Made by a program: the position numbers and the translations under genes. A DNA stretch of 64,000 bases from an uncultured delta proteobacterium (GTDB lineage: Bacteria; Desulfobacterota; Desulfobacteria; Desulfobacterales; B30-G6), in the NCBI GenBank assembly GCA_963842925.1, contig CAWJIL010000009.1, positions 6,244-70,243 of the forward strand, in the 5' to 3' direction. The number at the start of each line of letters is the position of its first letter. Position 1 is the first letter of the stretch. Positions 3,377 to 41,868 of the stretch are shown piece by piece. The notes under the pieces are model-generated. The model had not been told where the DNA came from. It worked only from the letters and a program-made list of their open reading frames with translations, and did no database searches.

Positions 3377-3526
3377 ACGATTTCGCAAAAAATCAGAATT
3401 AGACGGTTTCGTAAAAAGTTCAAATTCAAGGCGTGCAAGTTTTGTAATCATGAGGCGTACTTATCGTACGTTGAATGACTACGAAATGCAGCACAACACA
3501 GAAGTTGGAATTTTTACGGGACCGTC
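3377..3526 (+). repeat. RepC long imperfect hairpin, copy 1
   Basis: gacggtttcgtaaaaag...tttttacgggaccgtc. Near-identical copies at 34003-34150 (+) and 41719-41868 (-). Confidence 0.85.
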
Positions 3527-3595
3527 AATACTGAGAACAAAAAAAAATCACTGCCATGCCGGGTGATAATTTTTAAAAATTCTATATGTCAGCTA

Positions 3596-3624
3596 CTTGA
3601 CAGAGAAGGCATTTTTAGGTAATA
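3596..3624 (+). promoter_or_regulatory. sigma70-like promoter candidate
   Basis: TTGACA (3596-3601), 17-nt spacer, TAATAT (3619-3624), about 80 nt upstream of the PilZ ORF. Confidence 0.45.
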
Positions 3625-3703
3625 TTTGTCATTAACAAATTGGATCATCTCCAAAACGTTGATCCAATTTAAGGATTCAAGAAATAAACTCCAAAACACT
3701 TGA

Positions 3704-4108
3704 TTGCTATCCGGTCATATTATGGTTCTACGCTTTTTAAAAAGACTGTTTACATTTAGATTTCGCAAGCGGCGACGCTTCAACGCACACGATGGCGTTT
3801 ACGTCATCATGGAAAACTCGATCAAAATGAACCAGGTCCAAAATATCAGTATGGGAGGGCTGGCTTTCGACTATGAAGACAACGGATATCTCGTCGGAAA
3901 AGGATCTCATCAGCTAAAAGTTTTGAAAGATAAGAAAATAAAACTTGATCGCATACCCTTTAGGACGGTTTCTGATTTTCCTGTGGGCGAAGTCCTTTAT
4001 CCCTATCGAAAAATAAAGCGACAAACCATACAGTTTGCAGGCTTGAACAGTTCCCAGAAAGCGCAACTCAAATATTTTATCAAAAATAATACTATTGGCA
4101 GGGCTTGA
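3704..4108 (+). CDS. PilZ-domain protein
   Basis: RxxxR-like (RKRRRF) and N-x-S-x-x-G (NISMGG) c-di-GMP-binding motifs. The start could instead be the Met at 3722. Confidence 0.6.
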   Translation: MLSGHIMVLRFLKRLFTFRFRKRRRFNAHDGVYVIMENSIKMNQVQNISMGGLAFDYEDNGYLVGKGSHQLKVLKDKKIKLDRIPFRTVSDFPVGEVLYPYRKIKRQTIQFAGLNSSQKAQLKYFIKNNTIGRA

Positions 4109-4146
4109 ACATCTTACTGATGCCTTGAGCTATCCGTCTTAACAAG

Positions 4147-4171
4147 CAGAGCTGTTCGCTCTGTTTTTTTT
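4147..4171 (+). terminator. weak intrinsic terminator
   Basis: cagagc-tgttc-gctctg stem-loop followed by T8. Confidence 0.45.
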
Positions 4172-4192
4172 ATTACCTTCTCATGGTTCTGC

Positions 4193-4393
4193 ATGGAAAA
4201 TATTGTCCAAATTCTCAAACTCATTCCCATTCTGATCGCTGCCATTCTGCTTGGCAACTGGTTTCTGTCTGAACTCAAACGTGCCAATGCAACTGGCAAA
4301 CCCTGGTATACGGCCTATCTTTCCCCACCAGGCCTGCTCATAATGCTGGCCATTCTTGTAATCCCCGTCGTGCTATGGTTGCTGTCACATTGA
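4193..4393 (+). CDS. small membrane protein (66 aa)
   Basis: Two hydrophobic helices. Overlaps the start of the helicase ORF by 19 nt. Confidence 0.35.
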   Translation: MENIVQILKLIPILIAAILLGNWFLSELKRANATGKPWYTAYLSPPGLLIMLAILVIPVVLWLLSH

Positions 4394-5748
4394 AGATCGA
4401 GCTATCCAAAGACCTGAAGCTTTCCGATATCCCCGAACCCATCAAAGCTGAACTCATCCGCAAACTGACCATACCCAACCCCAAATATCTTGAAAACGCC
4501 AGAATGGGTAGATGGAACAGAAACGTTCCCAAAGTGCTTCGCTTTTTCCACCGCTACAAAGAGACCTTATGGATTCCCCGGGGATACCTCCGGCAGCTAA
4601 TCATCCTGTGCCGGCATCACCAGATTCCATACCAGATGGAAGATCACAGACGAAAACTGCCATCAGCAAATTTTTCTTTCCAGGGTGAATTGAAATCCTT
4701 TCAGACAAAGGCCGTCGATAAAATGCTGTCCCGGGACTTCGGGACCCTGAATTCACCCACCGGCAGCGGCAAGACCGTCATGGGTCTCTTTATGATCGCT
4801 CAGAGGCAGCAGCCAGCCCTGGTGGTCGTTCACACAAAAGACCTGGCCTATCAGTGGATTGAACAGATTATGCATTTTTTAGGAATTCCCGAATCACAAA
4901 TTGGATTGATTGGATCCGGAAAGAAAAAGATTGGGGATGCCATTACCGTTGCACTTGTCCAATCGCTTTATCGTTGTGCAGATGTTGTATCAAAGAGGAT
5001 AGGGCACATCATCGTTGATGAGTGTCATCGGACGCCTAGCCGCACCTTCACGGACGCTGTTACCGAATTTGACGCCATATTTATGCTCGGTCTGTCGGCC
5101 ACCCCATTTCGCAGGGATAATCTTTCAAATTTGATATTCTGGCACCTGGGTGATGTGCACCATTCAGTGGATAAATCTCAGCTGATCGAGGAAGGGCACA
5201 TTCTCGAGGCTGAAATCATCGTTCGTGAAACCGAGTTTGAAGCCTACCATGACCCTGTGAACAGTTACAGCAAGATGCTACTGGAATTGACCATGAATGA
5301 CGATCGTAACCATCTCATCGCATCGGATGTGGTCAAAGAAATTCAAAGGGGTGAAGGCATCTGTCTGGTTCTTTCCGACAGAAAGAGGCATTGTGAGACA
5401 CTGCTGTCACTCCTGCGCTACAAACATCACGTGGATGCGGATCTTTTGACCGGTGATTTGTCCAACGAACAACGGCAAAACGTTCTCCGTCGTGTCAAAG
5501 CCGGCGCCGTCCCGGTCGTCATTGCCACCGGTCAGTTGGTGGGAGAAGGGTTTGACTGCCCCAACCTGACAAGCCTGTTTCTGGCAACACCCATCCGTTT
5601 CAGTGGAAGGGTTCTCCAATATCTTGGGAGGGTCCTCAGACCCGCAGAAGATAAAAACAGCGCCAGGGTCTACGACTATGTGGACGTCAAAGTCGGTGTG
5701 CTAAAGTCTGCCGCTAAACATCGGCAACAGGTGTATACAAATAAGTAA
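4375..5748 (+). CDS. superfamily-2 DEAD/DEAH-box helicase (Rad25/type III Res-like)
   Basis: Walker A SPTGSGKT, motif II DECH, motif III SATP, and a C-terminal helicase domain (ATGQLVGEGFD). Confidence 0.85.
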   Translation: MVAVTLKIELSKDLKLSDIPEPIKAELIRKLTIPNPKYLENARMGRWNRNVPKVLRFFHRYKETLWIPRGYLRQLIILCRHHQIPYQMEDHRRKLPSANFSFQGELKSFQTKAVDKMLSRDFGTLNSPTGSGKTVMGLFMIAQRQQPALVVVHTKDLAYQWIEQIMHFLGIPESQIGLIGSGKKKIGDAITVALVQSLYRCADVVSKRIGHIIVDECHRTPSRTFTDAVTEFDAIFMLGLSATPFRRDNLSNLIFWHLGDVHHSVDKSQLIEEGHILEAEIIVRETEFEAYHDPVNSYSKMLLELTMNDDRNHLIASDVVKEIQRGEGICLVLSDRKRHCETLLSLLRYKHHVDADLLTGDLSNEQRQNVLRRVKAGAVPVVIATGQLVGEGFDCPNLTSLFLATPIRFSGRVLQYLGRVLRPAEDKNSARVYDYVDVKVGVLKSAAKHRQQVYTNK

Positions 5749-5978
5749 GGGTTCGAGGGTGGCTGACGGCTATCAGCGGATAGCAGCATCACAGCATACA
5801 AAGGGTTCAAGGGTCCGAGGGTGATACAAGGGTTCGAGGGTGGCTGACAGCTATGAGCAGATAGCAGCATCATAGCTTCCCAGCATACATTCAAGGGTCC
5901 GAGGGTGATACAAGGGTTCGAGGGTGGCTGACGGCTATGAGCAGATAGCAGCATCCTAGCCTCCCAGCACACAAAGGC
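5748..5978. repeat. tandem array, about 2.8 copies of an ~82-nt unit
   Basis: Units start at about 5748, 5829 and 5913 (aagggttcgagggtggctgacRgctatSagcRgatagcagcatc...). The array fills the whole convergent gap. Confidence 0.9.
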
Positions 5979-6890
5979 TTAGTCCAATCGGACTATTCCT
6001 TCCGCTTTTGCAGCTGAAATCGCATCCCTAAACTCAGTCCTGGAAATGCTTCTTTGAAGCGCTTTGATACCCGTGACATCGCCACAGGGTCGGTATTGAG
6101 ACATGAGGTTGACATAGGTGTTGGTGGATATTTCCCGGGAGATAAACCGCATGATTTCGCGTGTATCTGCCTTTCCTTCGGGCAGCACCAGATGGCGTAT
6201 TAACAGGCCCCTCTGGGCGACACCCCTTCGATCGAAAACCAGGCCCCCCACCTGGCGGTGCATTTCTTGTATGGCTTTTCTGGCAACTTCCGGATAATCC
6301 GGCGCCTGGCAAGTTAATTCAGCGATATCCGAATCCCAGAATTTGAAATCCGGCATATAGATATCAACGACACCGTCCAAGAGCTTCAATGTTTCAACCC
6401 GGTCATAGCCCCCTGAATTGTAAACCAGTGGTATGCTCAGCCCCTGTGCACATGCCATTTCCACAGCAGACAATAGCATGGGCACGACATGAGAGGGTGT
6501 CACGAAATTGATATTGTGGCAGCCTTCATTTTGCAGTGAGAGCATCATGGATGCCAGTTGCGTGTCGCTGACTTCTTGGCCAACACCCTGGTGGCTGATA
6601 TCATCGTTTTGACAGAAGGTGCACAACAGGCTGCAGTGGGTAAAGAAGATGGTACCCGAACCGTGCATCCCGACCAGGGGTGCTTCTTCCCCAAAATGAG
6701 GGTTAAAACTGGAAACCCACGCTTTTTCGTTTGTTTTGCAGATACCTGTTTGCCGGTGATCTGTCCGGTCGATATTGCACCGGCGGGGGCACATACTGCA
6801 GGCGTGCAATCGGCGGGAAGCTTCTTTTTTACGCTGTCTGAGCAAGCCCGAGCGATTGCTTTTCATATAGGCAGGTTTAAAATCAGTCAC
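5979..6890 (-). CDS. radical SAM protein, PflX-like (activase homologue)
   Basis: CxxxCxxC motif (HCSLLCTFCQN). Size and layout are typical of the COG1313 PflX family. Confidence 0.8.
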   Translation of the reverse strand: MTDFKPAYMKSNRSGLLRQRKKEASRRLHACSMCPRRCNIDRTDHRQTGICKTNEKAWVSSFNPHFGEEAPLVGMHGSGTIFFTHCSLLCTFCQNDDISHQGVGQEVSDTQLASMMLSLQNEGCHNINFVTPSHVVPMLLSAVEMACAQGLSIPLVYNSGGYDRVETLKLLDGVVDIYMPDFKFWDSDIAELTCQAPDYPEVARKAIQEMHRQVGGLVFDRRGVAQRGLLIRHLVLPEGKADTREIMRFISREISTNTYVNLMSQYRPCGDVTGIKALQRSISRTEFRDAISAAKAEGIVRLD

Positions 6891-21481: not shown

Positions 21482-24400
21482 TCACCGCTTGGTTACCGGG
21501 ATTAACCCGATGGAAAATTGTTCCATATGATAAATGGGCAGACCGTCTACTGTCAACAGGCTATCAGCGGTGAGCATGGGAAAGGGCTTTTCCTCCACGC
21601 TTGTCACCACAGCGACAAGCTCGATGCGTCTGTTTTCAGGGGTGATTTGTCCGCGATAGGTCCATTGATGATGGATATCCGATTTCAGGGTAAAACAGTG
21701 ATCATCCGCCAGATGCGGCCATCGATCCAGGGCTATGAACTTGAGCGCTTGTATCAGGGACTCCAGACCTAGTGAACCGGGACAGACCGGATCATTCAGA
21801 AAATGGGCTTTAAAAAACCATTCCTCCGGCTGAACGTCTTTTGAGGCCTTGATGAATCCGTGCCCATGGGGTCCTCCTTGCGGGAGATAGGCATCCATGT
21901 GATCGATCATGCGTATGGCCCGTCCCGGCATTACCGCATGTTCATGAACATGACCGGATAAATCGTCCGGTGCCGTTGGGGCATGATCCGGCATTGCCAT
22001 GCTTTTGCAGCCTGTCAAGTCCTCAGGCAGGGTATAGCGAGACATATGGATCTGCTGCAATCCCACCTGCTCGGCCAGCGCTTTGCGGGTAAAAAATCCA
22101 AAATGCGTCTGTCCCTGATAGACCATCTGCTGGGAAAGCAGGATCTGGAACGCATAGTGCTCGATGATCATGTCACCCGCCTCAGACACCTGCGTCAGGC
22201 GTGCACGCGTGGTCAGTGACGATCTTTTTGCAGGCACATCCCTGCTGAGTTGAGCCCTACCACCCAGATTTCTGAACCTGAGATCTTTTTCACTCCGCAG
22301 GGCCGAACCCATGTATGCCGCCAGCCAGCCACACGGCTGGAGTGCGATTTCATTTAAAACACAAAAGGGCATATTCGGCGTACGGTTGGCACGGAAATAC
22401 CAGTCATCCGGATCAATATCCATCTCGGCCTGGATCCAGCCACCGGGTTTCAATACCCAGGGTTCCGGTGCAGCTTCAACCACCCGGTCCATGAACAGAT
22501 AGGGCGGTTTTGGCAACCTGGCAATGAACCGGCGGCTATCAAATTCCCGGTAGGGTTCTCCAAAGGCTATCGAGGGCCTGCCATAGGCAAATTCTTCCAG
22601 CATTTTCCGGTTGAAAATTACGGTATCATTTCCTTTGGGTGCTGGCGGTGCTTTTTTTACAGCAGGAAAGGGCTCTTCTAGGGTGGCTGTTTCTGGAGGG
22701 ATTTTCCAAATATTTTCGATCTCTTCACGTGAGCCCCGGGTCAATTTTATGGAAATACTGTCAAAATAAACAATGTACGCACCATCGGCGGTCATGCGGG
22801 CATCGGCAAGGGCGTATGGCTCCGGGCCATATCCCATTTCCTTGATGTCGATTTCATATACCACGTGCCGGGTCTTGGGTGTTACCGGTCCACGACACTT
22901 CAACACACTTTCAACCCCCACAAGCGGTTCATAGCAGGCGTCTTCTTTGTCACTGATCCATCCGATACGCTGCAGAAATACCCGCAATGTGTGTGCACAG
23001 CATTCGTACATGAGGGTACCCGGCATGACCATGTCATCAACAAAATGACAGGTCAGGTACCAATCGTCCGGGTGAACATCTGCTTCAGCACGTATCAACC
23101 CCTTACCAAAGGTGCCCCCATAGGGATCGAATGTGAGAACACGATCGATGAGGTGCATGCGCCCGTCCGGCAGCCACAGGGAAGAAGATAGGGTTTTGCC
23201 TTGAAACGCAGCACCAAATGCCTCCTCCAGACGCCCGGATCGCAAGGCATCCAGGTCCGTCTCGGAAAACGATTCAGCGGTCACCGGGGCGGGATGCCGC
23301 CAATCAGTACCGGACGCTACTTCCTTAGGCGTGTCATCATGCCCTTCTGAAACAATACCCCCGGAGTTTCGCACCTCCTCTTCGGTAAAGAAACCCGCAC
23401 AGCCATCTTTCATTTGAATGAGCAGGTTATCATCGATAAACCCTTTGAATTTAAAAAAGAAAAGATGGGTATCCCCCTGACGGATAAACTTTTCGATCTC
23501 GATATCATATCGAATGGTCTCGCCTGGCCGTGGCAAGCCCCTGAAGAAGGTCACACAGGCATCCAGGAGACGATAAGTTCTGCGACCCTTGACCTCATGA
23601 TCGATCCCCAGGTAGGAACTGAGAAACAGATCCGCCTGACCAGCCTCCACCGATATGCAGGCCGGCGCACGGTTACCGTCCAGATACCAGGCCCCTGGAA
23701 GCACGTCGTGTTCGGTAACGATCCGGCCACTGCCCAGGGAACATTTTTCACCCACGAGGGAAACAACCCGATCCACCAGCATGAGGGGTTCGTCCGGCAG
23801 TCTCACCCGGGCATTATAGGTATCAACCACCTGGAATTCAGGACCGAATACCTCGGCAACGCAGCCCGTGGCAAAGGTAAGACAGTCTTTTCTGGAATAA
23901 AGCGGGGCAGGCTCTGTTGAAGCGGGGTGTGTACCAGGTCCTGTTGCAACCGTTCCTGTCTCATGGGCTTGCTGCATTTGTGCGCTCAGGAGTTGGGCCT
24001 GCAGTGCCATGGCCTCCTGGTAGCCCTTTGTTATCCGGCTGGAAATTTCCAAATATGATTGGTGTGCTTCGGAGCTTGTCCGGGCATTTTCCTGAACAGA
24101 CTGCATGAGCTCCCGTGCTATTTGGTGGGGAAGGCTCTCAGACGGCATCCCTGAAATAGCATCGATCGCCGTCACGGGATCAATGGCTTGTTCGATTTTC
24201 GATTCTTCCTGAAAAGACATGTCCGAATCTGTATTGCCCGGCAGTAAAGGTGGCGATCCGGGTAAGGGGAGACGGCTAGGGATGCGTATGGGAATTTGAT
24301 TCGATTCCTTTTCTTTTGACAAGGCTCGCGATTTATTCAGTGTTTCATCATAGACAGCATTCATTTCAGGTGGGTAGGATATTCTTCCATATAATTTATC

Positions 24401-27400
24401 GAGTTGGACATCGAGCATCTCGGCCCTGAGGGCTCCCAACATCTTCAAGATTGACAGATATTCGTCATCACCGTTTCGACTGACGGCAACGGCCAGATGG
24501 GGACGATCTTCAAGCGTCTGCTGTATCATTCGCGTGCAGGAGGCCCGGGGTCCCATTTCGATAAAAACACGCATACCATCCTCATAGGCCTGTTGAATGG
24601 TGCGGGTAAAATCAAAGCCATGCAGGGCCTGTTCCGTTATGGATGCTGCTGTCTTTTCACTGGTGAGATCATAGGCATGGCCCCATGCACAACTGTAGAA
24701 ACGCATATTCCCGGGTGGGTTGATGGGGTGCAGGTGGAGTTGCCGATAGTCATCCTCCACAGGTCTGACCGCATCGCAGTGGACCGTCACCACCCCGTCC
24801 AGGAAAACAGCGTTACACCCCAGTGTTTTGACAAGCGTTTGTATGGATTCCTTTTCACCGCCTATAACGGATTCCCTGGGCGAATTAATGATCAAAAGAC
24901 GTGTCATGGGGAATTGCTTTAACACCCTCTTGACCTGGTTTGCCGTTCGATCAACCGCCACCACCTGCCATTCAAATTTCTCTTGGGCTTCAATCTTCCA
25001 TGCACGCCTGAGAGAAAGGCACGGTCCGGTCAAGGCTGTCTTGAACAAGGGTGATTCAAGCATCTGTTTCAACAGGTGGTCTTGACCCTTCCAGGCACCC
25101 ATGGCAACCAATCCGGCGGTCTCCCCAAGGCTGTACCCGATGACCGCCTCAGGCGAGGCCACAAACTCCTGCATCAGTCTGGCTGTGACACACCCGTGCA
25201 TGACCTGCCCGAAAATCGCCGACAAGGGGTCGGCATGAATCTGATGCAAGGTCTGTGTTTCCCATTGGTTTTCCCAGGACATTCGATAGGGTATAAATCG
25301 TTCGGGAATCATTTGCTTTTTCAACTGTCGGGTTTCTGCATCCATCTGGCCTAAAATCAGCGGCCATTGGGTTCCCATGCCCCGTCCCATGCCAAGATAG
25401 TGATTTCCCGAACCAGGAAAAACAAAGGCCGTGCCGGCCGATGCCCCCAGGGGTTTGGGTCTGTAAAAAATATTTGCATGTCCCGGGGCGGTGTCCCGGT
25501 TCTCTGACGCGACGAGCTGTTTGGCTTTGCGAATCTCGTTTTTTGCCTGGTGGATATCTTTGATCACCAGACTGAGCGCTCTTTTTTTTCCTGCTTGAGA
25601 TGCTGTTTTTTCGTACCAGACCCGCGCCACCAGTTCCATGGGCCATCCCCTGGAAATCCCTTTTTGGATCTGATCTAAAAGCCTTCCCAGACCTTCTATG
25701 ATCTCCTGATCATGATCACCTTCCACGACAAAAAGACCGCTGCTCTGATATCCCAGGGGACGAAGCCTGTCTGATGCGACCGCCGGGTCTGAGTTTCTCC
25801 CTACTTTTTCGTATTCCTCCAAAAAAACATGGGTACAGTTGCCATCGGATGTCATGCCGCCCACACAAGCCTTGCGTGACGTGGTCTCCCGGTTTCGAAA
25901 CCAGTATTGCGCTTTGATGGGAACGTGAAAACGTTTTGCCCATGCAATTTCCCCAGGCCGTTGATAATCCGGCATGGGCGGTATGAGCTTATGGTAGAGA
26001 CACAGGCTTGTTTTCACGATGGAAGACAGGCCGGATGCGGCGCCCATGTGTCCCACAATTGGTTTGGTGCTGCCCAGGGCACAATGCAGCCCCGTATCAA
26101 TGGAAATGGCATTCAACACCTTGGATTCTGTGGCATCTTCAGTATGAATACCACTTCCGTGCGCCTCAAAAAGGCTGATGTCCGACAAGCCAATGTCAGC
26201 CTCCTGGGTGGCACGCTCTAGGGATACCTGATACGCTTCCTGCGATACACGCCCACTTTCCATTGCCATTCCAGTGGCAGATCCAAATCCCTTGACAATG
26301 GCATAGATACGATCTTTTGCAACCAGGGCATCTTCCAGACGCTTGAGTACCAGGGCTGTACCGCCTTCTCCGGGAAGGGTCCCCCGAGCCGATCTATCAA
26401 AGGGCAGGACAGATGCTGTACTGGAATAAGGCCTGATCTGATGGTGCGTGGCCAGATATCTGAGATCCCCGGTAAAATCCACAGCACCCACAAGCATCGT
26501 GTCGGACGCATTGTCCTGCAAGGCCCTCACGCCTATTTCCAGGGCCTTGATACCGGAAGCTTCTTCACACGAAACAACGAAACTGGGGCCGCCCAACAGA
26601 AATTCCTTGGCGATCCGGCTTGCAATAACACTGGGTAAAGCTCCCAGTGTCCGGTTGGAAGTCAAGGGTCGGCTGACAGATGCTTTTAAAGAGCGAATCC
26701 ATTCGGTGATATGGGGATCCTGAAGATTGAGCCCATATTTTTTTTCCCATCCACGGATGCTTCGATTAACAATCCATCTCAAATGAAAATTGGTGGCTTC
26801 AAAATCAAAATCAGCACCCACCATCACGCCCATCCTCGGGCGTTTTTCCCTGAGGGGCACACCGGCACTGATAAGGGCGCTTCTACAGAGCTTCATCATG
26901 AGGAGGTGCTGGGGTAGAATATCGGGTATTTCATTGGGGGGAATACGAAACAGACCCATATCCAAAGGGATCTCTTCCATGAATGCGCCGTGTTCCGGAA
27001 CCAACTGACTGAAATAACTATCGGCTCCGGTTTGTATGCCCCGAAGATGCGAATGGTGCTCAATGATGGATTGCCCGTTGAAAACAGCCTCCTGAAAAGC
27101 CCTCAGGGTTGACAGCTTCCCCATGGCAGCACTCATGCCGATGATTGCCACCAGCGGTTTTTCCCTTGTGGAAATTCTGGAACAGTCATTTTCATCGCCA
27201 TTCTTCAGGACGGCTTGCGTTTGCAGATTTATAGCACCCTTTTCATGCCCCTTGACTTGGGTCCATTCTTCCACAAGCATGTGGGCATTGATGCCACCGA
27301 ATCCAAATGCGCTCACAGCGGCTCGACGGGGGGTGTCTGCATCCCGCAGGGTCCAGTCGCTCACTTCCGTCTGGACCCTGAAAGGGCTACCGATCAAAGG

Positions 27401-28618
27401 GCTGTTTTCGGTTGGTTCTGTATAGTTGTTTGATGGCGGTATGTTCTTATGCTTTAATGCAAGTAATACTTTAAGTGTTCCGGCTGCCCCGGCACCTGTT
27501 AAAAGATGTCCGATGGTGGATTTGACCGAGCCGATGGGGCAGACGCCGGCATCCATTTTGATGCCCTGCCACAGGGTTGTGAGACTGCTCAGTTCGGTAT
27601 GATCCCCAAGGGGTGTGCCCGCCCCGTGACATTCAATCAGGTCCACCTGATCCGGTGTCCACCCGGTGGTGTCATAGGCCATGCGCATGGCTCTTACCTG
27701 GCCTTCACGCCTGGGTGCCAGGAGGCTGCCTCCCATATCGTTTGCAAGTCCGATGCCTTTGATGACCGCCAGAATATGGTCATGGTCTTTTTCAGCATCT
27801 TCCACACGTTTCAGCACAAACATGCCGACACCTTCCCCCACAACCAGACCGTCCGCACCTTTGTCAAAAGGCGCGCAGCGACCCGATGGCGACAAGGCAC
27901 GCAGCTGTGAAAATCCAACCTGTGTATAGAGGCAGTCAGGCCGTGACACCCCACCCACCAACATGGCATCCGCCCTGTGGTGTGACAAGGCATCACAGGC
28001 AAGCTTGAATGCTACCAACGATGATGCACAGGCTGCATCCAGTGTATAGCTACCGTTTCCAAGACCAAGTCCTTTGGCTAACAGAGCGGCCGGAAAACCG
28101 GTCATTCTGCCGGCCAGACATTGATTCCTGGTCAGGACCGCTCCCATCTCCCCGGTCATGGGGTGGAATAATTGCTTTTCGAGATAGCTCCCCAGGATTT
28201 TCTCCGCGATCAATGAGGACGCGTCCGTTGGGAGGGCAATAGCGGCAAGAATCACACCGGTTCGTTTTTTGTCGATGGATTCATGTCTGGCAGCCAAAAA
28301 TGCTTCTCTGCCAGCGTGCAGCACGATTCGGTGAAGGGGGTCAAGATCCTGAAGCATGTCTTTGTCAAGATCGAGATCATCAAAACAATAGTCCAAATCC
28401 TGGTTCAAGAGACAGGCCACCCTGGATATTGCCTTGTCAGGCTGCAGTCTTTCTGTGGTCATCATCGCCGGGTCCACCCGCCAGCGATCTTTTCCAAGCG
28501 CCTGAAAGGCATCTTTTTTGAGAACCAGATTTTCCCAGAAAGCATCCAGGCTTTTGGCACCCGGCAAGAGTCCGGCCATACTGACAATGGCGATATCGTA
28601 GGGTCTGGGCGTTTGCAT
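21482..28618 (-). CDS. PUFA/polyketide-synthase-like megasynthase, KS-CLF-AT-(FabA-type DH)x2 (PfaB/PfaC-like)
   Basis: KS Cys DAACASS (nt ~28016-28042) with HGAGT and GHLLTGAG. CLF with Cys replaced (FVVSCEEASG, ~26553-26581). AT GYSLGE (~25120-25145). FabA-type motifs CHFVDDMVMPG (~23016-23058) and AHFLNDPVCPG (~21770-21822). No DSL-type carrier motif seen. Confidence 0.85.
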   Translation of the reverse strand: MQTPRPYDIAIVSMAGLLPGAKSLDAFWENLVLKKDAFQALGKDRWRVDPAMMTTERLQPDKAISRVACLLNQDLDYCFDDLDLDKDMLQDLDPLHRIVLHAGREAFLAARHESIDKKRTGVILAAIALPTDASSLIAEKILGSYLEKQLFHPMTGEMGAVLTRNQCLAGRMTGFPAALLAKGLGLGNGSYTLDAACASSLVAFKLACDALSHHRADAMLVGGVSRPDCLYTQVGFSQLRALSPSGRCAPFDKGADGLVVGEGVGMFVLKRVEDAEKDHDHILAVIKGIGLANDMGGSLLAPRREGQVRAMRMAYDTTGWTPDQVDLIECHGAGTPLGDHTELSSLTTLWQGIKMDAGVCPIGSVKSTIGHLLTGAGAAGTLKVLLALKHKNIPPSNNYTEPTENSPLIGSPFRVQTEVSDWTLRDADTPRRAAVSAFGFGGINAHMLVEEWTQVKGHEKGAINLQTQAVLKNGDENDCSRISTREKPLVAIIGMSAAMGKLSTLRAFQEAVFNGQSIIEHHSHLRGIQTGADSYFSQLVPEHGAFMEEIPLDMGLFRIPPNEIPDILPQHLLMMKLCRSALISAGVPLREKRPRMGVMVGADFDFEATNFHLRWIVNRSIRGWEKKYGLNLQDPHITEWIRSLKASVSRPLTSNRTLGALPSVIASRIAKEFLLGGPSFVVSCEEASGIKALEIGVRALQDNASDTMLVGAVDFTGDLRYLATHHQIRPYSSTASVLPFDRSARGTLPGEGGTALVLKRLEDALVAKDRIYAIVKGFGSATGMAMESGRVSQEAYQVSLERATQEADIGLSDISLFEAHGSGIHTEDATESKVLNAISIDTGLHCALGSTKPIVGHMGAASGLSSIVKTSLCLYHKLIPPMPDYQRPGEIAWAKRFHVPIKAQYWFRNRETTSRKACVGGMTSDGNCTHVFLEEYEKVGRNSDPAVASDRLRPLGYQSSGLFVVEGDHDQEIIEGLGRLLDQIQKGISRGWPMELVARVWYEKTASQAGKKRALSLVIKDIHQAKNEIRKAKQLVASENRDTAPGHANIFYRPKPLGASAGTAFVFPGSGNHYLGMGRGMGTQWPLILGQMDAETRQLKKQMIPERFIPYRMSWENQWETQTLHQIHADPLSAIFGQVMHGCVTARLMQEFVASPEAVIGYSLGETAGLVAMGAWKGQDHLLKQMLESPLFKTALTGPCLSLRRAWKIEAQEKFEWQVVAVDRTANQVKRVLKQFPMTRLLIINSPRESVIGGEKESIQTLVKTLGCNAVFLDGVVTVHCDAVRPVEDDYRQLHLHPINPPGNMRFYSCAWGHAYDLTSEKTAASITEQALHGFDFTRTIQQAYEDGMRVFIEMGPRASCTRMIQQTLEDRPHLAVAVSRNGDDEYLSILKMLGALRAEMLDVQLDKLYGRISYPPEMNAVYDETLNKSRALSKEKESNQIPIRIPSRLPLPGSPPLLPGNTDSDMSFQEESKIEQAIDPVTAIDAISGMPSESLPHQIARELMQSVQENARTSSEAHQSYLEISSRITKGYQEAMALQAQLLSAQMQQAHETGTVATGPGTHPASTEPAPLYSRKDCLTFATGCVAEVFGPEFQVVDTYNARVRLPDEPLMLVDRVVSLVGEKCSLGSGRIVTEHDVLPGAWYLDGNRAPACISVEAGQADLFLSSYLGIDHEVKGRRTYRLLDACVTFFRGLPRPGETIRYDIEIEKFIRQGDTHLFFFKFKGFIDDNLLIQMKDGCAGFFTEEEVRNSGGIVSEGHDDTPKEVASGTDWRHPAPVTAESFSETDLDALRSGRLEEAFGAAFQGKTLSSSLWLPDGRMHLIDRVLTFDPYGGTFGKGLIRAEADVHPDDWYLTCHFVDDMVMPGTLMYECCAHTLRVFLQRIGWISDKEDACYEPLVGVESVLKCRGPVTPKTRHVVYEIDIKEMGYGPEPYALADARMTADGAYIVYFDSISIKLTRGSREEIENIWKIPPETATLEEPFPAVKKAPPAPKGNDTVIFNRKMLEEFAYGRPSIAFGEPYREFDSRRFIARLPKPPYLFMDRVVEAAPEPWVLKPGGWIQAEMDIDPDDWYFRANRTPNMPFCVLNEIALQPCGWLAAYMGSALRSEKDLRFRNLGGRAQLSRDVPAKRSSLTTRARLTQVSEAGDMIIEHYAFQILLSQQMVYQGQTHFGFFTRKALAEQVGLQQIHMSRYTLPEDLTGCKSMAMPDHAPTAPDDLSGHVHEHAVMPGRAIRMIDHMDAYLPQGGPHGHGFIKASKDVQPEEWFFKAHFLNDPVCPGSLGLESLIQALKFIALDRWPHLADDHCFTLKSDIHHQWTYRGQITPENRRIELVAVVTSVEEKPFPMLTADSLLTVDGLPIYHMEQFSIGLIPVTKR

Positions 28619-28803: not shown

Positions 28804-28846
28804 GAATAAATTCGTTTCACGAATTTATATGACGCGGCTTGGCCGC
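28804..28846 (+). repeat. twin-hairpin (TH) copy followed by a T-run, orphan
   Basis: gaataaattcgt-ttca-cgaattt followed by gcggc-ttg-gccgc and T9. Confidence 0.7.
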
Positions 28847-28865
28847 TTTTTTTTTATTTCTTCAT

Positions 28866-28975
28866 TGAAAAACCGGTCCTTTGAACCAGGTCAGAGATAT
28901 TTGGCTATGCCAATGGCGGTAGTTACTTAAATCCGAAGCACGAAATTCGAAATTCGAAATTCTAAACAATATACG
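28866..28975 (-). repeat. RepA partial copy
   Basis: End module plus aaatccgaagcacgaaattcgaaattcgaaattctaaacaat. Confidence 0.8.
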
Positions 28976-29269: not shown

Positions 29270-29551
29270 ATGATGAGAACACAGAAATGGATGACGATTT
29301 TTATGCTTATAGCCCTGGTAATGCTTTCGAGCGGGTCTGTCTTCGCCGAGGAGCAGGGAAAAATCAATATCAACACGGCCACGGTCGAAGAACTGGCACA
29401 ACTGGACCGTGTCGGTCCCAGCTATGCAGATAAAATAGTTGCCTTTCGTCAGGAGAACGGTCCTTTTAAAGTGCCTGAGGACATCATGCTGGTAGCCGGT
29501 ATTGGTCAGAAAACCTTTGAAATCAACAAAGACAGGATCGTGGTCAAATAA
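29270..29551 (+). CDS. comEA: ComEA-like helix-hairpin-helix DNA-binding protein
   Basis: Signal/anchor segment followed by ININTATVEELAQLDRVGPSYADKIVAFRQENGPF...GIGQKTFE. RBS aggagg precedes the ATG at 29270. Confidence 0.65.
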   Translation: MMRTQKWMTIFMLIALVMLSSGSVFAEEQGKININTATVEELAQLDRVGPSYADKIVAFRQENGPFKVPEDIMLVAGIGQKTFEINKDRIVVK

Positions 29552-29571
29552 TTACAAAGAATGGTTGAAGT

Positions 29572-29664
29572 GCGACCCCGCGGGTTCCCGCCGTATCATC
29601 TCAAAGGAGTCATTTTACTGAAGGCAATTCTGTTGCCTTTCCCGCTATTCGACCCCGCGGGGTC
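29572..29664. promoter_or_regulatory. pair of GC-rich palindromes flanking a small hairpin
   Basis: acccgcgggt (within 29572-29587) and gaccccgcggggtc (29651-29664). Hairpin aaggcaa-ttctg-ttgcctt at 29621-29639. Confidence 0.4.
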
Positions 29665-29699
29665 AGCTATTCAGATCAGGTAATGAAAAGGAGAGAACC

Positions 29700-30107
29700 A
29701 TGGACTATGCCTACCAACGACTGGACGTCTGGAAAAAGGCGGTCGATCTTTCCATCAAGGTCATTCAATGTATCGCGGAGCTAGCCGATGAGCTTGAAAG
29801 TCAGCGTCTCACAGAAGAAATTGAAATGAGTGCCGTTAATATCGCCACCAATATTGCCAAAGGCAAGGCCTGTTTGTCGGAGGAGGATTTTATTTACTAC
29901 CTGTTTTTATCCAAAAGATCCCTATACGAAACCATGACACTGTTAGAAATTCTCAAAGCGAAGCAACTGATTACAGACGAGTGCTACACAGAAATAGAAA
30001 CAAAAGGTAAGAACATCACGACCATGCTGATCGAATTTATCCGTACGGTCAAAGATACCAACAGCCCCTATCAGGCAGAAAACTATCAGGCGGCTGTTAA
30101 GACTTAA
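29700..30107 (+). CDS. four-helix-bundle protein (23S rRNA IVS / Avd-like family), copy 1
   Basis: N-terminal YQRLDVWKKAVDL motif. Size and helical pattern typical of the family. Confidence 0.75.
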   Translation: MDYAYQRLDVWKKAVDLSIKVIQCIAELADELESQRLTEEIEMSAVNIATNIAKGKACLSEEDFIYYLFLSKRSLYETMTLLEILKAKQLITDECYTEIETKGKNITTMLIEFIRTVKDTNSPYQAENYQAAVKT

Positions 30108-30154
30108 CCAGAAGCCTATTTTGGTTTTAAAGCTAAATTCGAATTGAAGTAAAA

Positions 30155-30305
30155 AGCCAACAAGCCAAAGTAAAAACCAGATTTTGTTCCAAGGTCAAGG
30201 CGGAGTCGAATTTCAATCCGCAGGAATACTATCGTATTTTGAGGAATTGAAATGAGATTCCAACATAGAGATTGGGACAAAAGATATTTTTAATTGGCTT
30301 GTTTA
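30155..30305 (+). repeat. RepD long imperfect hairpin, copy 2
   Basis: Core 30181-30275 matches 745-838. The outer stem differs (agccaacaagcc / ggcttgttt). Confidence 0.8.
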
Positions 30306-30318
30306 AAGGAGGGAAGAG

Positions 30319-30708
30319 ATGACCTACATCTATGAAAAACTCGATGTATGGCAAAAAGCCATGCAATTTGCCGGGGATGTGATTGCATCCATCTCGATGA
30401 TAAGCAGCAAAGACCACCATCAAGAGGTGTTACAGAAAACAGAAGGCAGTGCAGCCGGCATTGCCGGTGCCATTGCCATGGGAAAATCCTACAGTTCAAA
30501 ACACGACTTTGCCAGACATCTGTATCAATCCAGGGGCGCCTTGTATCAAACCATGACCCTCCTGGAACTGTTGAAACGCAAGCGCATAATACCGGAAGAT
30601 ACCTTTGCTGATTTTGACACCAGGGCCAACCAACTGACCGCCATGTTGACCGCCCTGATCAAGTCGATCTACACACCCAAAACAGAAAATGGCAAAAAAG
30701 CATCCTAG
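30319..30708 (+). CDS. four-helix-bundle protein (23S rRNA IVS / Avd-like family), copy 2
   Basis: YEKLDVWQKAMQFAGDV motif. Paralogous to copy 1. Confidence 0.75.
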   Translation: MTYIYEKLDVWQKAMQFAGDVIASISMISSKDHHQEVLQKTEGSAAGIAGAIAMGKSYSSKHDFARHLYQSRGALYQTMTLLELLKRKRIIPEDTFADFDTRANQLTAMLTALIKSIYTPKTENGKKAS

Positions 30709-31351
30709 CCGCCGGGCTCCTATAATCAAGCCGAAGATTCTTGTGGATTACAGGGAAAAGAATTCTGGGCTTCCAAGTCTTCTGGTTGATGCAGGATTTG
30801 ACGTGGTTATAGTCAAACTGCCTTATTGTGACTACATTATTAACCATGGCATATCCATCGAAAGAAAGACCGGCAGGGATTTCGTTGTTTCAATTATAGA
30901 TGGAAGGCTGTTCGAACAAGCCAGGAAGATAAAACAATTCCTCCCTCGCCCCTTGTATCTTGTTGAGGGAAATCCATTGAATTTCAAGATCAATATTTCG
31001 AGGGATGCGGTCCTGGGAGCAGTTGTTTCTCTTCAAGCCATTTGGCAGATACCAATGATTCTTTCGGAAGATGTTGAGCAGTCATGTCACGTCATCAGTA
31101 TGATTTTCCATCAGTCCAGAAAATTACCAACTCTTGTTGAAATGAGACATGGGTATCGCCCAAAAAAATTGAGAAGTAGAAAGTTGCATCTACTTCAAGG
31201 ATTGCCGCAGGTTGGGCCTCAGCTCGCCAAACGATTACTGGATCATTTCAAATCCGTACAAAACGCTTTGAACGCAAGTGAAAAGGATCTGTTAAAGGTC
31301 CATGGGATTGGAAAAAAGAAAGCCATACTGATTAAAAAAGTGTTGACTTGA
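30689..31351 (+). CDS. ERCC4/XPF-type nuclease with a C-terminal (HhH)2 domain
   Basis: VDYRE, CDYII and ISIERKTGRDFVVSIIDGRLFEQ motifs, then LQGLPQVGPQLAKRLL...VHGIGKKKA. 20-nt overlap with the preceding gene. Confidence 0.75.
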   Translation: MAKKHPSRRAPIIKPKILVDYREKNSGLPSLLVDAGFDVVIVKLPYCDYIINHGISIERKTGRDFVVSIIDGRLFEQARKIKQFLPRPLYLVEGNPLNFKINISRDAVLGAVVSLQAIWQIPMILSEDVEQSCHVISMIFHQSRKLPTLVEMRHGYRPKKLRSRKLHLLQGLPQVGPQLAKRLLDHFKSVQNALNASEKDLLKVHGIGKKKAILIKKVLT

Positions 31352-31398
31352 GTCAGTCTGGGTTACCTATATTATAATAGCGACGCAGTCGCGTAGGA

Positions 31399-31435
31399 TA
31401 AAATCGGATAGTTTAACTATCCGATTTTATTTTTG
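31399..31435 (+). terminator. intrinsic terminator / TH-type hairpin
   Basis: aaaatcggatag-ttta-actatccgatttt followed by a T-run. Preceded by the gcgac-gca-gtcgc hairpin. Confidence 0.65.
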
Positions 31436-31745: not shown

Positions 31746-31791
31746 TATAGCGGCGAAGCCGCGTCTCATTAATTCGCGGAGTGAATTAATT
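31746..31791 (-). repeat. twin-hairpin (TH) copy, inverted orientation
   Basis: gcggc-gaa-gccgc followed by aattcgc-ggag-tgaatt. Abuts the next start codon. Confidence 0.55.
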
Positions 31792-32374
31792 GATGGATAA
31801 CCAGGACATCCGAACCCTTAAAATTCTTGAGGAAATCGAGAAAAGTTCCCGCTTGAGTCAGCGCTACCTGGCAGAACATCTCCATATTTCTCTGGGATTG
31901 GTGAACTCTTTTTTTAAACGCTTGGCCAAAAAAGGTTTTTACAGGGTCTGCGCCGCACCCAAGAACCGTATTGACTACCTTCTGACACCCAAGGGTGTTG
32001 TCGAAAAGAACCGACTCACCTATGCGTATATTCAGTTTTCTTTTCAATTTTTTGTTGATGCACGTCATAAAATAAAGCGAACCCTCAAGAAACTGGAAGA
32101 AGATGGCATGCGCGAAATCATTTTCTACGGTACCAGCGACCTGGCAGAAATTACCTATGGGTCACTTAAGGATACACCGTTAAAGTTCCAAGCAATGGTG
32201 GATGATCAACATAAGGGCAAGCTGTTTTTGGGACATACCATTCGATCATTTGATGCACTCAACACCCTATCCTTTGATAAAATTTTGATCACGGCATTTT
32301 CCGCCACGGAAAATCCCGTGGATGTATTGATAAAAAAAAATATTCACAAGAGTAGGATCAGTTTGATTAAATAG
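31790..32374 (+). CDS. winged-helix (MarR-like, EPS-associated type) regulator with a C-terminal Rossmann-like extension
   Basis: wHTH segment LSQRYLAEHLHISLGLVNSFFKRLAKKGF. The track start is TTG; ATG follows at 31793. Confidence 0.6.
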   Translation: MMDNQDIRTLKILEEIEKSSRLSQRYLAEHLHISLGLVNSFFKRLAKKGFYRVCAAPKNRIDYLLTPKGVVEKNRLTYAYIQFSFQFFVDARHKIKRTLKKLEEDGMREIIFYGTSDLAEITYGSLKDTPLKFQAMVDDQHKGKLFLGHTIRSFDALNTLSFDKILITAFSATENPVDVLIKKNIHKSRISLIK

Positions 32375-32376
32375 AT

Positions 32377-32535
32377 ACCCGGGTCCAAAGGGCCAGGCAC
32401 TGATTCAACCCTATAAGGGATTAATATTATAAATATTCAGCGTGTGATAAATTCTAAATCCGAATATCGAAATACGAAACAAACCCAAATATCTCTGACC
32501 TGGCCCAAAGGACCAGGTTTTATATGACGAAATAA
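32377..32535 (+). repeat. RepA partial copy (lacks the second arm)
   Basis: Left end and first arm are fused directly to the end module ctctgacctggcccaaaggaccagg. Confidence 0.85.
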
Positions 32536-32549
32536 AAGATAGAGGGCCT

Positions 32550-33797
32550 ATGAATTCCAATCGACAGAAAATAGATCAGTTGATCCAAAAAGGTGTGAAT
32601 ATTCCCAACCCCGAAAGTGTTGAAATCGGCCAAGAAGTCAAGGTTGAAAACATATCGGATAATGGGGTCATTATCCATTCAGGGTGCCGCTTGTTTGGAA
32701 AATCAACCCTTATCATGGGACAGACACAAATCGGCTATGAATCCCCGGTCACCATCCAGGATTGCCAGGTCGGCCCCCAGGTCGCCCTCAAAGGGGGTTT
32801 TTTCAAAGAATCTGTTTTTCTGGAAAAAGCCAGTGCCGGAAGCGGATCTCATGTCAGGGAAGGGTGTATTTTTGAAGAAGAGGCCAACATTGCCCATACT
32901 GTGGGTCTCAAACAAACCATCCTGTTTCCTTTTGTAACCCTTGGCAGTCTGATCAATTTCTGTGACTGCCTCATGGCGGGGGGAACCAGCAGGAAAGATC
33001 ACAGTGAGGTCGGCAGCGCCTATATCCATTTCAATTTTACCCCCAACCAGGACAAGGCAACAGCCACGCTTCTGGGTGATGTGCCTAAAGGGGTCATGCT
33101 TGATCAATTGCCGATTTTTCTGGGAGGGCAGGGGGGTCTGGTAGGACCCAGTCGTCTGGCCTTCGGGACGGTCATTGTGGCAGGCACCCTGTTTCGAAAA
33201 GATGCGACCAAGCCCGGAAGAATGTGGTTCGAGGGTGCAGGCAAGGGGGGCAATGCCCCTTTTGTTCCCGGACTCTATCGGGGCATCAAACGCATCGCGG
33301 TGAACAACAGCCTCTATATCGGAAACCTCATCGCCCTCCTGCATTGGTATCAACACCTGCGGTCTCTTTTTATTTCAGACAAATTCCCGGAGGTACTCCA
33401 GACAGCCGTCATAGAAAAATTGCAGTTGATCATTCAAGAACGCATGCAGCGATTCAATCAACTGATCGAGAAAATGCCCTTATCCATTCAAAAATATAAG
33501 GATATTTATCACATGGACGCTGATGCAAAAATCATGGTTCAACAAAAAGAACTGCACGAAAAACAAGAGGCTGTCAACAGCTGCCTGCTTTCCATGCAGA
33601 CATACCCGGGAGACACCGCCCTGAGAGATCCATTCTTGAAACAGGCAGCACACGCCTCACAGAACAATGACAAAGAATACATCAAGACCATCCAGACCCT
33701 CGACCCCAAAGCAAAGCAGATGGGAAGCAACTGGCTTCAGGGAATCGTGGACAAAACGCTTGAGGAGGTAATGGCGATTCTGCATAGTTTCCGCTAA
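32550..33797 (+). CDS. left-handed beta-helix (hexapeptide-repeat) protein, GlmU C-terminal-like, with a helical C-terminal domain
   Basis: Repetitive [LIV]-G-x4 pattern across the N-terminal 230 aa. Lies upstream of glmM. Confidence 0.5.
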   Translation: MNSNRQKIDQLIQKGVNIPNPESVEIGQEVKVENISDNGVIIHSGCRLFGKSTLIMGQTQIGYESPVTIQDCQVGPQVALKGGFFKESVFLEKASAGSGSHVREGCIFEEEANIAHTVGLKQTILFPFVTLGSLINFCDCLMAGGTSRKDHSEVGSAYIHFNFTPNQDKATATLLGDVPKGVMLDQLPIFLGGQGGLVGPSRLAFGTVIVAGTLFRKDATKPGRMWFEGAGKGGNAPFVPGLYRGIKRIAVNNSLYIGNLIALLHWYQHLRSLFISDKFPEVLQTAVIEKLQLIIQERMQRFNQLIEKMPLSIQKYKDIYHMDADAKIMVQQKELHEKQEAVNSCLLSMQTYPGDTALRDPFLKQAAHASQNNDKEYIKTIQTLDPKAKQMGSNWLQGIVDKTLEEVMAILHSFR

Positions 33798-33954
33798 AGG
33801 TGCTTGAAAAAGATACGAGACTGGGAAAAAAAGAACGCCCAACATCGAATTTTGAATGGGTTTAAATGAAGAAACAGAAATTAGCTCATAACTGATAGCT
33901 CATAGGACTTGACCAGCTAACAACTACCAACTATCAGCTGATAGTGTGTTTTCA

Positions 33955-33996
33955 TTCGATGTTGGACGTTCGATGTTCGATGTTCGACGTTCATTT
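33955..33996. repeat. heptamer array (ttcgatg)x6
   Basis: ttcgatg ttggacg ttcgatg ttcgatg ttcgacg ttcattt. Confidence 0.9.
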
Positions 33997-34002
33997 TTTG
34001 AT

Positions 34003-34150
34003 GAACTCGTAAAAAGTCAAATTTAGACGGTTTTGTAAAAAGTTCAAATTCAAGGCGTGCAAATTTTGCTATCATGAGGCGTACTTACTGTACGTTGAAT
34101 GATGGCTAAATGCAGCACAACGCCGAAGTTGGGCTTTTTACGAAACCGTC
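34003..34150 (+). repeat. RepC copy 2
   Basis: See 3377-3526. It overlaps the spurious N-terminal extension of the glmM track ORF. Confidence 0.85.
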
Positions 34151-41718: not shown

Positions 41719-41868
41719 GACGGTTTCGTAAAAAGTCCAACTTCGGCGTTGTGCTGCATTTCGCTATCATTCAACGTACAGTAAGTACGCCTCATGATAA
41801 CAAAATTTGCACGCCTTGAATTTGAATTTTTTACAAAACCGTCTAAACTGGACTTTTTACGAGTTCGT
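41719..41868 (-). repeat. RepC copy 3 (inverted)
   Basis: The reverse complement matches 34003-34150 almost base for base. Confidence 0.85.

Follow-up and report, generated by a model that had tools for sequence, protein, structure and literature searches.

Nucleases of the XPF family cut 3' flaps in archaea and in eukaryotes. The small proteins of family PF05635 have been known since the intervening sequences of 23S rRNA were described in the early 1990s, and to our knowledge a role is established only for the distant Avd branch of this family. Zhang et al. (2014; PMC3936711) reported a conserved motif, GxxRxxxSxxxNxxE, in the PF05635 proteins; their genes co-occur with those of the nucleases Cas4 and Cas6 and are scattered inside unrelated operons, e.g., cas loci. 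The family is also enriched near clustered regularly interspaced short palindromic repeat (CRISPR) loci and near diversity-generating retroelements (DGRs) (PMC3936711, PMC10053308, PMC10910872). The present study concerns a locus in which two PF05635 genes stand directly before the gene of a short XPF-type nuclease. It lies within 64,000 nucleotides (the whole stretch, hereafter the window) of the genome of an uncultured delta proteobacterium of the Desulfobacterales, a bacterium of the sulfate-reducer type (assembly GCA_963842925.1, contig CAWJIL010000009.1, positions 6,244 to 70,243). Our literature searches brought up no paper on such a pairing, which the first-pass annotation of the window had likewise taken to be undescribed, and none on a bacterial XPF.

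The four co-directional genes of that annotation were all found on the plus strand, and their domain assignments were borne out by hidden Markov model (HMM) searches of Pfam and NCBIfam. They encode a ComEA-like protein with helix-hairpin-helix (HhH) motifs, two four-helix-bundle proteins (termed here b1 and b2) and the nuclease (Table 1). Tentatively, and at a little below an even chance for the explanation as a whole, we favor the view that the bundle genes were captured and domesticated as accessory or regulatory partners of XPF, in a chromosomal locus that is inherited vertically.

The nuclease matches the ERCC4 family of Pfam (PF02732, E = 2.5e-24, 86 bits against a cut-off of 24) and carries a tandem HhH domain, (HhH)2, at residues 168-216 (HHH_5, E = 3.3e-12; HHH_2, E = 5.8e-10, also in Pfam); in NCBIfam it matches the Hef/XPF nuclease region. 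Its alignment with the Aeropyrum pernix XPF (2BGW; E = 1.5e-31) runs over the whole length, with YCDYIINHGISIERKTGRDF over MGDYLVSDSIIVERKTSSDF. The catalytic motif GDXnERKX3D is present together with the upstream acidic residue (C47-D48-Y ... E58-R59-K60 ... D64), the G of the GDY motif being replaced by C in the clade of the window. Residues D20, D48, E58, R59, K60 and D64 are invariant across 20 homologues (alignment A1), and the XPF active site, as had been claimed, is therefore intact. There is no C-terminal tail for interaction with PCNA, since the protein ends one residue past the last aligned position of the (HhH)2 domain (query residue 219 of 220). An N-terminal extension of 15 residues is specific to the lineage and occurs only in loci with bundle genes.

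Among the matches listed, the closest XPF is 77% identical and belongs to a metagenome-assembled genome (MAG) of an uncultured "delta proteobacterium"; across the bundle-bearing genomes the identity is 51-77%. Compared with a close relative (L003), the DNA similarity ends at 30924 and restarts at 31379, and compared with another (L005) the gap spans 30904-31241. At the protein level, residues 16-78 are 84% identical to those of L003 and residues 79-150 only 28%. Between the window and these close relatives, the N-terminal third of XPF and the terminator are about 80-97% identical, while the dimerization/HhH part shows 28-49% identity in protein and near-random identity in DNA. Similarity persists on both sides of this break, in b2 (87%) as well as in the terminator and in the genes downstream of it (72-81%). 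A break between conserved flanks indicates that the dimerization/HhH half was exchanged between alleles, and thus that XPF is a mosaic gene, subject to allelic replacement within the gene, whose 3' two-thirds were swapped between close relatives.

Both bundle proteins score well above the curated cut-offs of their family: b1 gives PF05635 at E = 1.9e-20 (73.5 bits against 33.8) and TIGR02436 at 69.9 bits (cut-off 24), and b2 gives PF05635 at E = 4.5e-17 (62.7 bits against 33.8) and TIGR02436 at 58.3 bits (cut-off 24). They are paralogues of 35-39% identity and of opposite charge, b1 being acidic (isoelectric point, pI, 4.8) and b2 basic (pI 9.3). Across the clade b1 is 79-92% identical, where the neighboring polyketide synthase (PKS) is 62-88% identical. 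Purifying selection is evident in the ratios of nonsynonymous to synonymous substitution (dN/dS), computed against five to eight orthologues, which are 0.04-0.08 for b1 and 0.09-0.21 for b2, compared with 0.12-0.18 for ComEA and 0.16-0.27 for XPF. On account of these values and the high identity of b1, the two were judged to be functional genes.

The family motif has been lost in both proteins. At the positions of G, R, S, N and E in Xcc0516, b1 has R, M, N, N and K (its degenerate motif reads R..M...N...N..K) and b2 has E, G, G, A and M, whereas the nearest outgroup PF05635 sequences retain NIAEGKGR...ARGSLYE; this loss suggests that the function of b1 and b2 has changed. An AlphaFold2 model of b2 (mean pLDDT, the predicted local confidence score, 86.8) has helices at residues 9-26, 32-56, 61-87 and 93-118, which form a four-helix bundle. 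In Foldseek its top matches in the Protein Data Bank (PDB) are 2GSC (Xcc0516; template-modeling score, TM, 0.80, root-mean-square deviation 1.9 A) and 2RLD (BT_0352), followed by Avd (TM 0.62-0.70). The label "Avd-like" given to these proteins at first is thus justified for the fold only, given the lower score to Avd than to Xcc0516, and no reverse transcriptase gene lies nearby: none was found among the fourteen window open reading frames (ORFs) scanned with Pfam around the locus, a scan that covered neither the 64 kb exhaustively nor template/variable repeats.

With b2 as the query, 5.8 billion proteins yielded only 75 relatives, none of them below 49% identity. Among 1.84 billion cluster representatives, a profile search returned five b-type clusters at E <= 1e-30, separated by a gap from 1e-38 to 1e-26 from about 4,850 other clusters of the PF05635 family (clusters at 50% identity). 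Every genomic context recovered for the b-type sequences is the present locus, and b1 and b2 thus constitute a subfamily of their own, tied to a single locus.

At nine of the ten loci of the clade, an in-frame ATG precedes the final base of the b2 stop codon by exactly 19 nt, and in the window, L001 and L082 this ATG is the sole plausible start of XPF. The only other in-frame candidate in the window, GTG 30743, lies one residue ahead of the conserved D-Y-R-E and would cut conserved residues, so that the overlap of 20 nt described by the first-pass annotation is real. Small shifts occur elsewhere: the XPF ATG of L086 is 2 nt past the b2 stop, and the called XPF gene of L091 and L092 also starts 2 nt after the end of b2. 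In the majority of XPF homologues the start lies two or three residues ahead of a conserved I-x-V-D-Y-R-E; at that position the window has AAG-CCG-AAG and no start codon, and no Shine-Dalgarno-like sequence was seen upstream of 30689. Translation of XPF in the bundle-bearing lineage therefore appears to depend on that of b2 (translational coupling), as judged from the overlap geometry, the loss of a start codon at the ancestral position, the restriction of the extension to loci with bundle genes and the lack of a Shine-Dalgarno-like sequence.

The distribution of XPF was assessed by a combined pattern and tblastn scan of one genome per GTDB species, from which the best 80 of at least 579 confirmed relatives were retained; a locus was considered informative if it included at least 700 nt of upstream sequence, as did 69 of the 80. 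The relatives include many Desulfobacterota, Planctomycetota (Brocadiaceae/Scalindua), Omnitrophota, Spirochaetota, Pseudoalteromonas rubra and archaea. Among bacteria, then, short XPF nucleases are not rare, and the initial statement that ERCC4 nucleases are uncommon there was overstated. In addition, 149 plasmids, of which 135 belong to Pseudomonas, carry distant ERCC4 homologues (32-37% identity), for the most part on Pseudomonas megaplasmids. Two such plasmid contexts (L148, NZ_CP017294.1, 277122-277832; L149, NZ_CP010312.1, 138471-139115) are unrelated to the locus, with no four-helix-bundle gene annotated.

At 17 of the 69 informative loci, all of them in delta/Desulfobacter-type MAGs, a ComEA-like gene lies upstream of XPF on the same strand. 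Its product in the window has a hydrophobic N-terminus ending in VFA/EEQ, followed by the HhH pair (HHH_3, E = 2.9e-21; TIGR00426, 74.2 bits against a cut-off of 53.1); its score with the full-length comEA model TIGR01259 is 63.8 bits, below the cut-off of 152. In 12 of the 17 loci no bundle gene separates ComEA from XPF (the gap between ComEA and XPF is 23-350 nt in 11 of them), and in the other five (L001-L005) two bundle genes stand between ComEA and XPF. In one delta-proteobacterial MAG (L031) the ComEA-XPF pair is duplicated in tandem as a unit (3488-4681 and 5352-6469). Homologues of the 194-residue winged helix-turn-helix (wHTH) protein encoded downstream of XPF adjoin the nuclease gene in 16 loci, mostly at position +1 or +2, while XPF genes outside the Desulfobacterota, e.g., in Planctomycetota, have quite different neighbors. 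On this distribution, ComEA and XPF, usually followed by the wHTH gene, are the older and broader unit, and the bundle genes are a later, lineage-specific insertion. The neighborhood census proposed at the outset thus recovered the pairing in other genomes, but in one lineage only, and with ComEA-XPF as its core.

Homologue look-ups added L081-L086, L091/L092 and L089/L090, the last two being cut before XPF. The common order is a PKS of the polyunsaturated fatty acid (PUFA) type on the minus strand, followed by ComEA, b1, b2 and XPF, and the bundle genes are present in every examined member of the PKS-ComEA clade (16 further loci). The bundle-XPF pairing accordingly recurs in L001-L005, L081-L086, L087/L088 and L091/L092, and it arose in one lineage only. 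The P0199 contig, one of the five b-type clusters, has the order ComEA, PF05635, PF05635, a gap and, last, a cut ORF. L087 and L088 each hold a single b2-like gene, 44% identical to b2 and 37% to b1, which suggests that a b2-like gene came first and that b1 arose by duplication.

Canonical PF05635 genes in the fetched loci are borne on cassettes of about 0.45 kb with terminal inverted repeats of 20-40 nt, composed of heptamer-like units and falling into three repeat types. These cassettes match the inverted-repeat-bounded intervening sequences of 23S rRNA, which we take to be the source of the family name. At L029 (2767-3249) a 40-nt inverted repeat, 95% complementary, encloses a 403-nt interval with an ORF; relative to XPF, this cassette is about 640 nt upstream and on the opposite strand. 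L089 and L090 contain a canonical copy with an intact motif between b1 and b2, bounded by inverted repeats of 26-29 nt about 390 nt apart (L089, 3472-3923) and already split into ORFs of 94 and 37 residues. L002 (3072-3487) has a frameshifted canonical copy and L004 a fragment. At L085 (3449-3577) two repeat arms alone remain, 85 nt apart, and at L087 (3785-3939) an ORF-less pair of 34-nt arms lies between the bundle gene and XPF. Inverted repeats flanking b1 and b2 are absent in the window and in L001. The decay of later canonical copies here, set against the persistence of b1 and b2, is what domestication would lead one to expect. The ORF-less remnants of such cassettes have their two arms 46-100 nt apart, and a similar one is present in the window at about 33836-33994, downstream of a gene for a 415-residue protein. 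Within 1.5 kb upstream of XPF, two or three independent origins of PF05635 genes can be counted in these loci, namely the ancestor of b1 and b2, the copy between them and the cassette of L029.

These observations can be arranged into a course of events. The ancestral unit comprised an exported ComEA-like DNA-binding protein, a short and presumably homodimeric structure-specific endonuclease of the XPF/Hef type and, usually, a wHTH regulator after it; the homology of this nuclease to the archaeal short XPF predicts 3' flaps, forks and nicked junctions as its substrates. A PF05635 gene was then captured between ComEA and XPF, most probably on a small inverted-repeat cassette. It lost its inverted repeats and signature motif, was duplicated into the acidic b1 and the basic b2, and took over the translation start of XPF, which now appears to be made by coupling to b2. 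The data show the gene content, the order of these events, the purifying selection, the geometry of the overlapping start and the exclusive tie of subfamily to locus, while contact between b1/b2 and XPF, the direction of any regulation and the substrates are predicted. The two bundle proteins may be subunits that assist or regulate XPF or its DNA substrate, for example by scaffolding, recruiting or inhibiting, in a role analogous to that of the Avd pentamer, which serves the reverse transcriptase of DGRs. A more specific version, possible but rather doubtful in our estimation, would have b1 and b2 as domesticated cassette proteins of the intervening-sequence type that are now dedicated XPF subunits, and whose hetero-oligomeric ring may recruit or gate the XPF dimer on branched DNA, perhaps DNA imported through ComEA.

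Several observations weigh against a partnership of this kind. XPF stands without bundle genes at 64 of the 69 informative loci of the genome collection and hence works without them in most lineages. The pairing has a single origin and is vertically inherited, such that its conserved order could be due to ancestry alone. PF05635 genes insert promiscuously, as in cas loci and in the cassettes of L029 and L089, which makes proximity weak evidence, and there is no overlap at L087, where the bundle gene is about 220 nt from XPF, or on the P0199 contig, where it is about 460 nt from the next gene. The ComEA-XPF link is itself restricted to a single order, and ComEA and XPF would be expected to work in different compartments. 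Lastly, the evidence for what the pairing does is genomic only. Because of the single origin, gene order alone cannot separate a partnership from the alternative that b1 and b2 serve their own, family-typical purpose, having landed here on a mobile cassette, and that XPF hitch-hikes on their translation with no functional link between them. This alternative, which we regard as unlikely though worth serious attention, would fit the repeated arrival of cassettes in or beside the locus (L029, L089/L002 and the ORF-less remnants at L085 and L087), the scattering of the family in unrelated operons such as cas loci (PMC3936711), the many XPF lineages without bundle genes and the missing overlap at L087. 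It fits less well with a b-type subfamily that is found at this locus only, with the loss in b1 and b2 of a motif that other members keep, with selection on b1 and b2 that exceeds the selection on XPF, with the decay of a later canonical insertion at the very place where b1 and b2 persist, or with an overlap geometry kept at nine of ten loci. The exclusive tie of subfamily to locus, the motif loss, the stronger selection, the take-over of the XPF start and the decay of later insertions together lead us to lean modestly toward a partnership of the bundle proteins with XPF.

Two further explanations place the locus in a different process. The four genes might form a DNA-uptake module, in which ComEA captures periplasmic DNA, XPF trims 3' flaps or heterologous tails during recombination and the bundle proteins modulate this last step. 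The adjacency of ComEA and XPF in 17 loci, its duplication as a unit in L031, an HhH region that scores above its curated cut-off and the flap cutting known for the XPF family all agree with such a function, yet the adjacency is limited to Desulfobacterota-type MAGs and could reflect nothing more than synteny, the neighbors examined included no comEC, dprA or pilus genes, and the ComEA-like protein falls below the cut-off of the full-length model; we therefore hold this explanation to be improbable. The first-pass annotation had also raised the possibility of a defense-like system, that is, a nuclease that attacks foreign or structured DNA with the bundle proteins as sensor or immunity factor. 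The swapping of the 3' two-thirds of XPF between close relatives is a kind of allelic turnover often seen in conflict genes, the PF05635 family is enriched near CRISPR and DGR loci (PMC3936711, PMC10053308, PMC10910872), and the gene order, in which translation of a nuclease would be coupled to that of a small protein, recalls pairs of antitoxin and toxin. The six proteins nonetheless had no match in PADLOC-DB v2 at E <= 0.01, and the neighbors are housekeeping genes, i.e., the PUFA-type PKS, a phosphoglucomutase, a Bax1-I family protein, the large subunit of exonuclease VII (XseA) and a polyprenyl synthetase (IspA). Synteny is vertical and stable across relatives whose PKS identity is 62-88%. 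Phage searches produced one ERCC4 match, in an archaeal virus, and nothing for b2, hence no close phage relatives, and close plasmid relatives are likewise missing. The 69-nt inverted repeat that flanks the locus is a dispersed repeat and not an island border. For want of a PADLOC match and of close phage relatives, and in view of the housekeeping neighbors and the dispersed nature of the flanking repeat, a defense role is unsupported and, in our view, very unlikely.

All proteins of the locus derive from known families, and what is new is their arrangement and the diverged bundle subfamily. If the bundle proteins are indeed partners of XPF, this would be the first function assigned to a PF05635 member outside the DGRs, and no partner of a bacterial XPF would have been known before; the family in general might then supply adaptor subunits for nucleic-acid enzymes, such as reverse transcriptase, Cas4/Cas6 and XPF. 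The locus provides a handle on an old orphan family, in the form of a diverged pair under strong selection that is exclusively coupled to one well-understood type of enzyme, and the decaying canonical PF05635 copy beside b1 and b2 serves as a natural control. It further draws attention to the short XPF proteins of bacteria, a sizeable group that is experimentally untouched, and to a recurrent ComEA-XPF pairing in Desulfobacterota. Should the coupling be a matter of expression hitch-hiking only, it would still document a mobile small gene that took over the translation start of a host gene.

The four genes end in a strong terminator, as first described: a perfect 16-bp hairpin at 31398-31430 is followed by a T-run, and the surrounding 94-nt region has a folding energy of -37.2 kcal/mol (z = -6.9). 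The hairpins at 31381-31430 are kept across the clade, even where the 3' part of XPF has been replaced. The unit that this terminator closes may not be one simple operon, because a structured element (motif A) lies between ComEA and b1 and a dispersed repeat (motif B) between b1 and b2. Motif A consists of an 11-bp GC-rich outer stem (GACCCCGCGGG / CCCGCGGGGTC) around a conserved CUCAAAGGAG block and a covarying hairpin. In an alignment of 12 sequences, 95.4% of the cells are paired, compared with 39-58% in slid controls, with pairing of 100% in helix 1; compensatory changes are seen at three pairs, and the G-U substitutions fit an RNA of the plus strand. Structural support is moderate, given the low sequence diversity. 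Its model (R2) matches only the spacer between ComEA and b1, in window-type loci and in six metagenome contigs that carry these genes too; a pattern scan of metagenomes gave 54 stretches, of which six were true by the covariance model. Motif A might serve in processing or attenuation, or it might be what is left, under constraint, of an inverted-repeat cassette with no ORF.

Motif B is present in six copies in the window (Table 1) and in ten more in other Desulfobacter-type loci (L002, L004, L007, L011, L018, with two copies, L023, L025, L027 and L039), the only type in which it was seen, and it occurs in both orientations relative to the genes. Compensatory changes are found at 20 of the 30 predicted pairs, and at four positions G-U is more frequent than any other pair, which fits an RNA of the given strand. 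Focused Rfam scans gave no match for either motif at E <= 10. The insertion of motif B extends the b1-b2 spacer of the window to 211 nt, compared with 16-24 nt in L001, L003 and L082; the idea that this spacer is a decayed third bundle gene was rejected, as blastx was empty and the sequence is itself one of the motif B copies. Integron attC sites were considered for the spacers and set aside, with no integrase among the neighbors examined, gene positions that are fixed across genomes and end motifs that fit poorly by eye.

Inverted repeats of 69 and 43 nt (28841-28909 / 32480-32548) were considered as island borders and rejected, since they belong to a dispersed intergenic repeat. The core of this repeat, CCAGGTCAGAGATATTTGG, has eight copies in the window (0.02 expected), at 9318, 13777, 16784, 18870, 28886, 32485, 42719 and 45694, each adjoining a short GC hairpin. 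Two of the copies form the 69-nt inverted repeat, which brackets the block from ComEA to the wHTH gene.

The PKS gene (21482-28618, minus strand) runs divergently from ComEA, and every bundle-bearing relative has it in synteny. Its product of 2,378 residues has two ketosynthase domains, one acyltransferase domain and several FabA-like dehydratase domains, and resembles PUFA synthases. Downstream of the wHTH gene, the 415-residue protein (32550-33797, plus strand) has no Pfam hit; hexapeptide-like repeats are discernible by eye, and it is 81-84% identical in L001 and L003.

Table 1. Features of the locus and copies of its structured elements. Coordinates are those of the window unless a locus is named.
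Feature	Coordinates	Strand	Details
ComEA-like exported HhH DNA-binding protein	29270..29551	+	93 aa; HHH_3, TIGR00426
Motif A, structured element, ComEA-b1 spacer	29562..29672	+	alignments A2 and A5, covariation
b1, acidic PF05635 four-helix-bundle paralogue	29700..30107	+	135 aa, pI 4.8
Motif B copy, dispersed structured repeat, b1-b2 spacer	30177..30297	+	~120 nt; model R1, 114.7 bits
b2, basic PF05635 four-helix-bundle paralogue	30319..30708	+	129 aa, pI 9.3
Overlap of b2 3' end and XPF start	30689..30708	+	20 nt
Short XPF/Hef-type nuclease, ERCC4 and (HhH)2	30689..31351	+	220 aa, pI 10.2
Segment of XPF replaced (mosaic) relative to close relatives	30925..31378	+	DNA similarity break against L003
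Small covarying hairpin (31381-31393), then 16-bp terminator hairpin and T-run	31381..31430	+	
Winged-helix (HTH_24) protein downstream of XPF	31790..32374	+	194 aa; HTH_24, E = 4.8e-12
Motif A copy, L001	3064-3178		
Motif A copy, L003	2858-2971		
Motif A copy, L005	2852-2965		
Motif A copy, L081	3461-3575		
Motif A copy, L082	3992-4104		
Motif A copy, L085	2895-3008		
Motif B copy	738-858	+	
Motif B copy	2079-2200	-	
Motif B copy	3408-3520	+	
Motif B copy	34032-34144	+	
Motif B copy	41725-41837	-	

Compared with ComEA, the protein of the window shares the N-terminal export or anchor segment and the C-terminal DNA-binding HhH region, but it is only 93 residues long, scores below the full-length model and is encoded with a cytoplasmic nuclease rather than with comEC/comF. 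The closest counterparts of b1 and b2 are the PF05635/TIGR02436 proteins, including the pentameric Xcc0516 (2GSC) and BT_0352 (2RLD), to which they are linked by HMM scores above the curated cut-offs and, for b2, by a predicted bundle that superposes on theirs. Unlike canonical members, b1 and b2 are without the signature motif and flanking inverted repeats, have opposite charges and form a separate subfamily of one locus. With Avd (PDB 4DWL, 8UBE) they share the fold superfamily and the setting of a small helical protein that stands beside a nucleic-acid enzyme and possibly serves it, and b2 is basic like Avd; the identity, however, is only 9-14%, b1 is acidic, and the partner here would be a nuclease and not a polymerase. 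The nuclease differs from archaeal XPF in its bacterial origin, the replacement of G by C in GDY, the 15-residue N-terminal extension, the coupling to PF05635 genes and its mosaic 3' two-thirds, and from the crenarchaeal enzyme also in the missing PCNA-binding tail beyond the (HhH)2 domain. As in the short XPF of A. pernix (2BGW/2BHN) and the nuclease-(HhH)2 portion of euryarchaeal Hef, it has the same two-domain layout, the same length and the same catalytic D...ERK...D.

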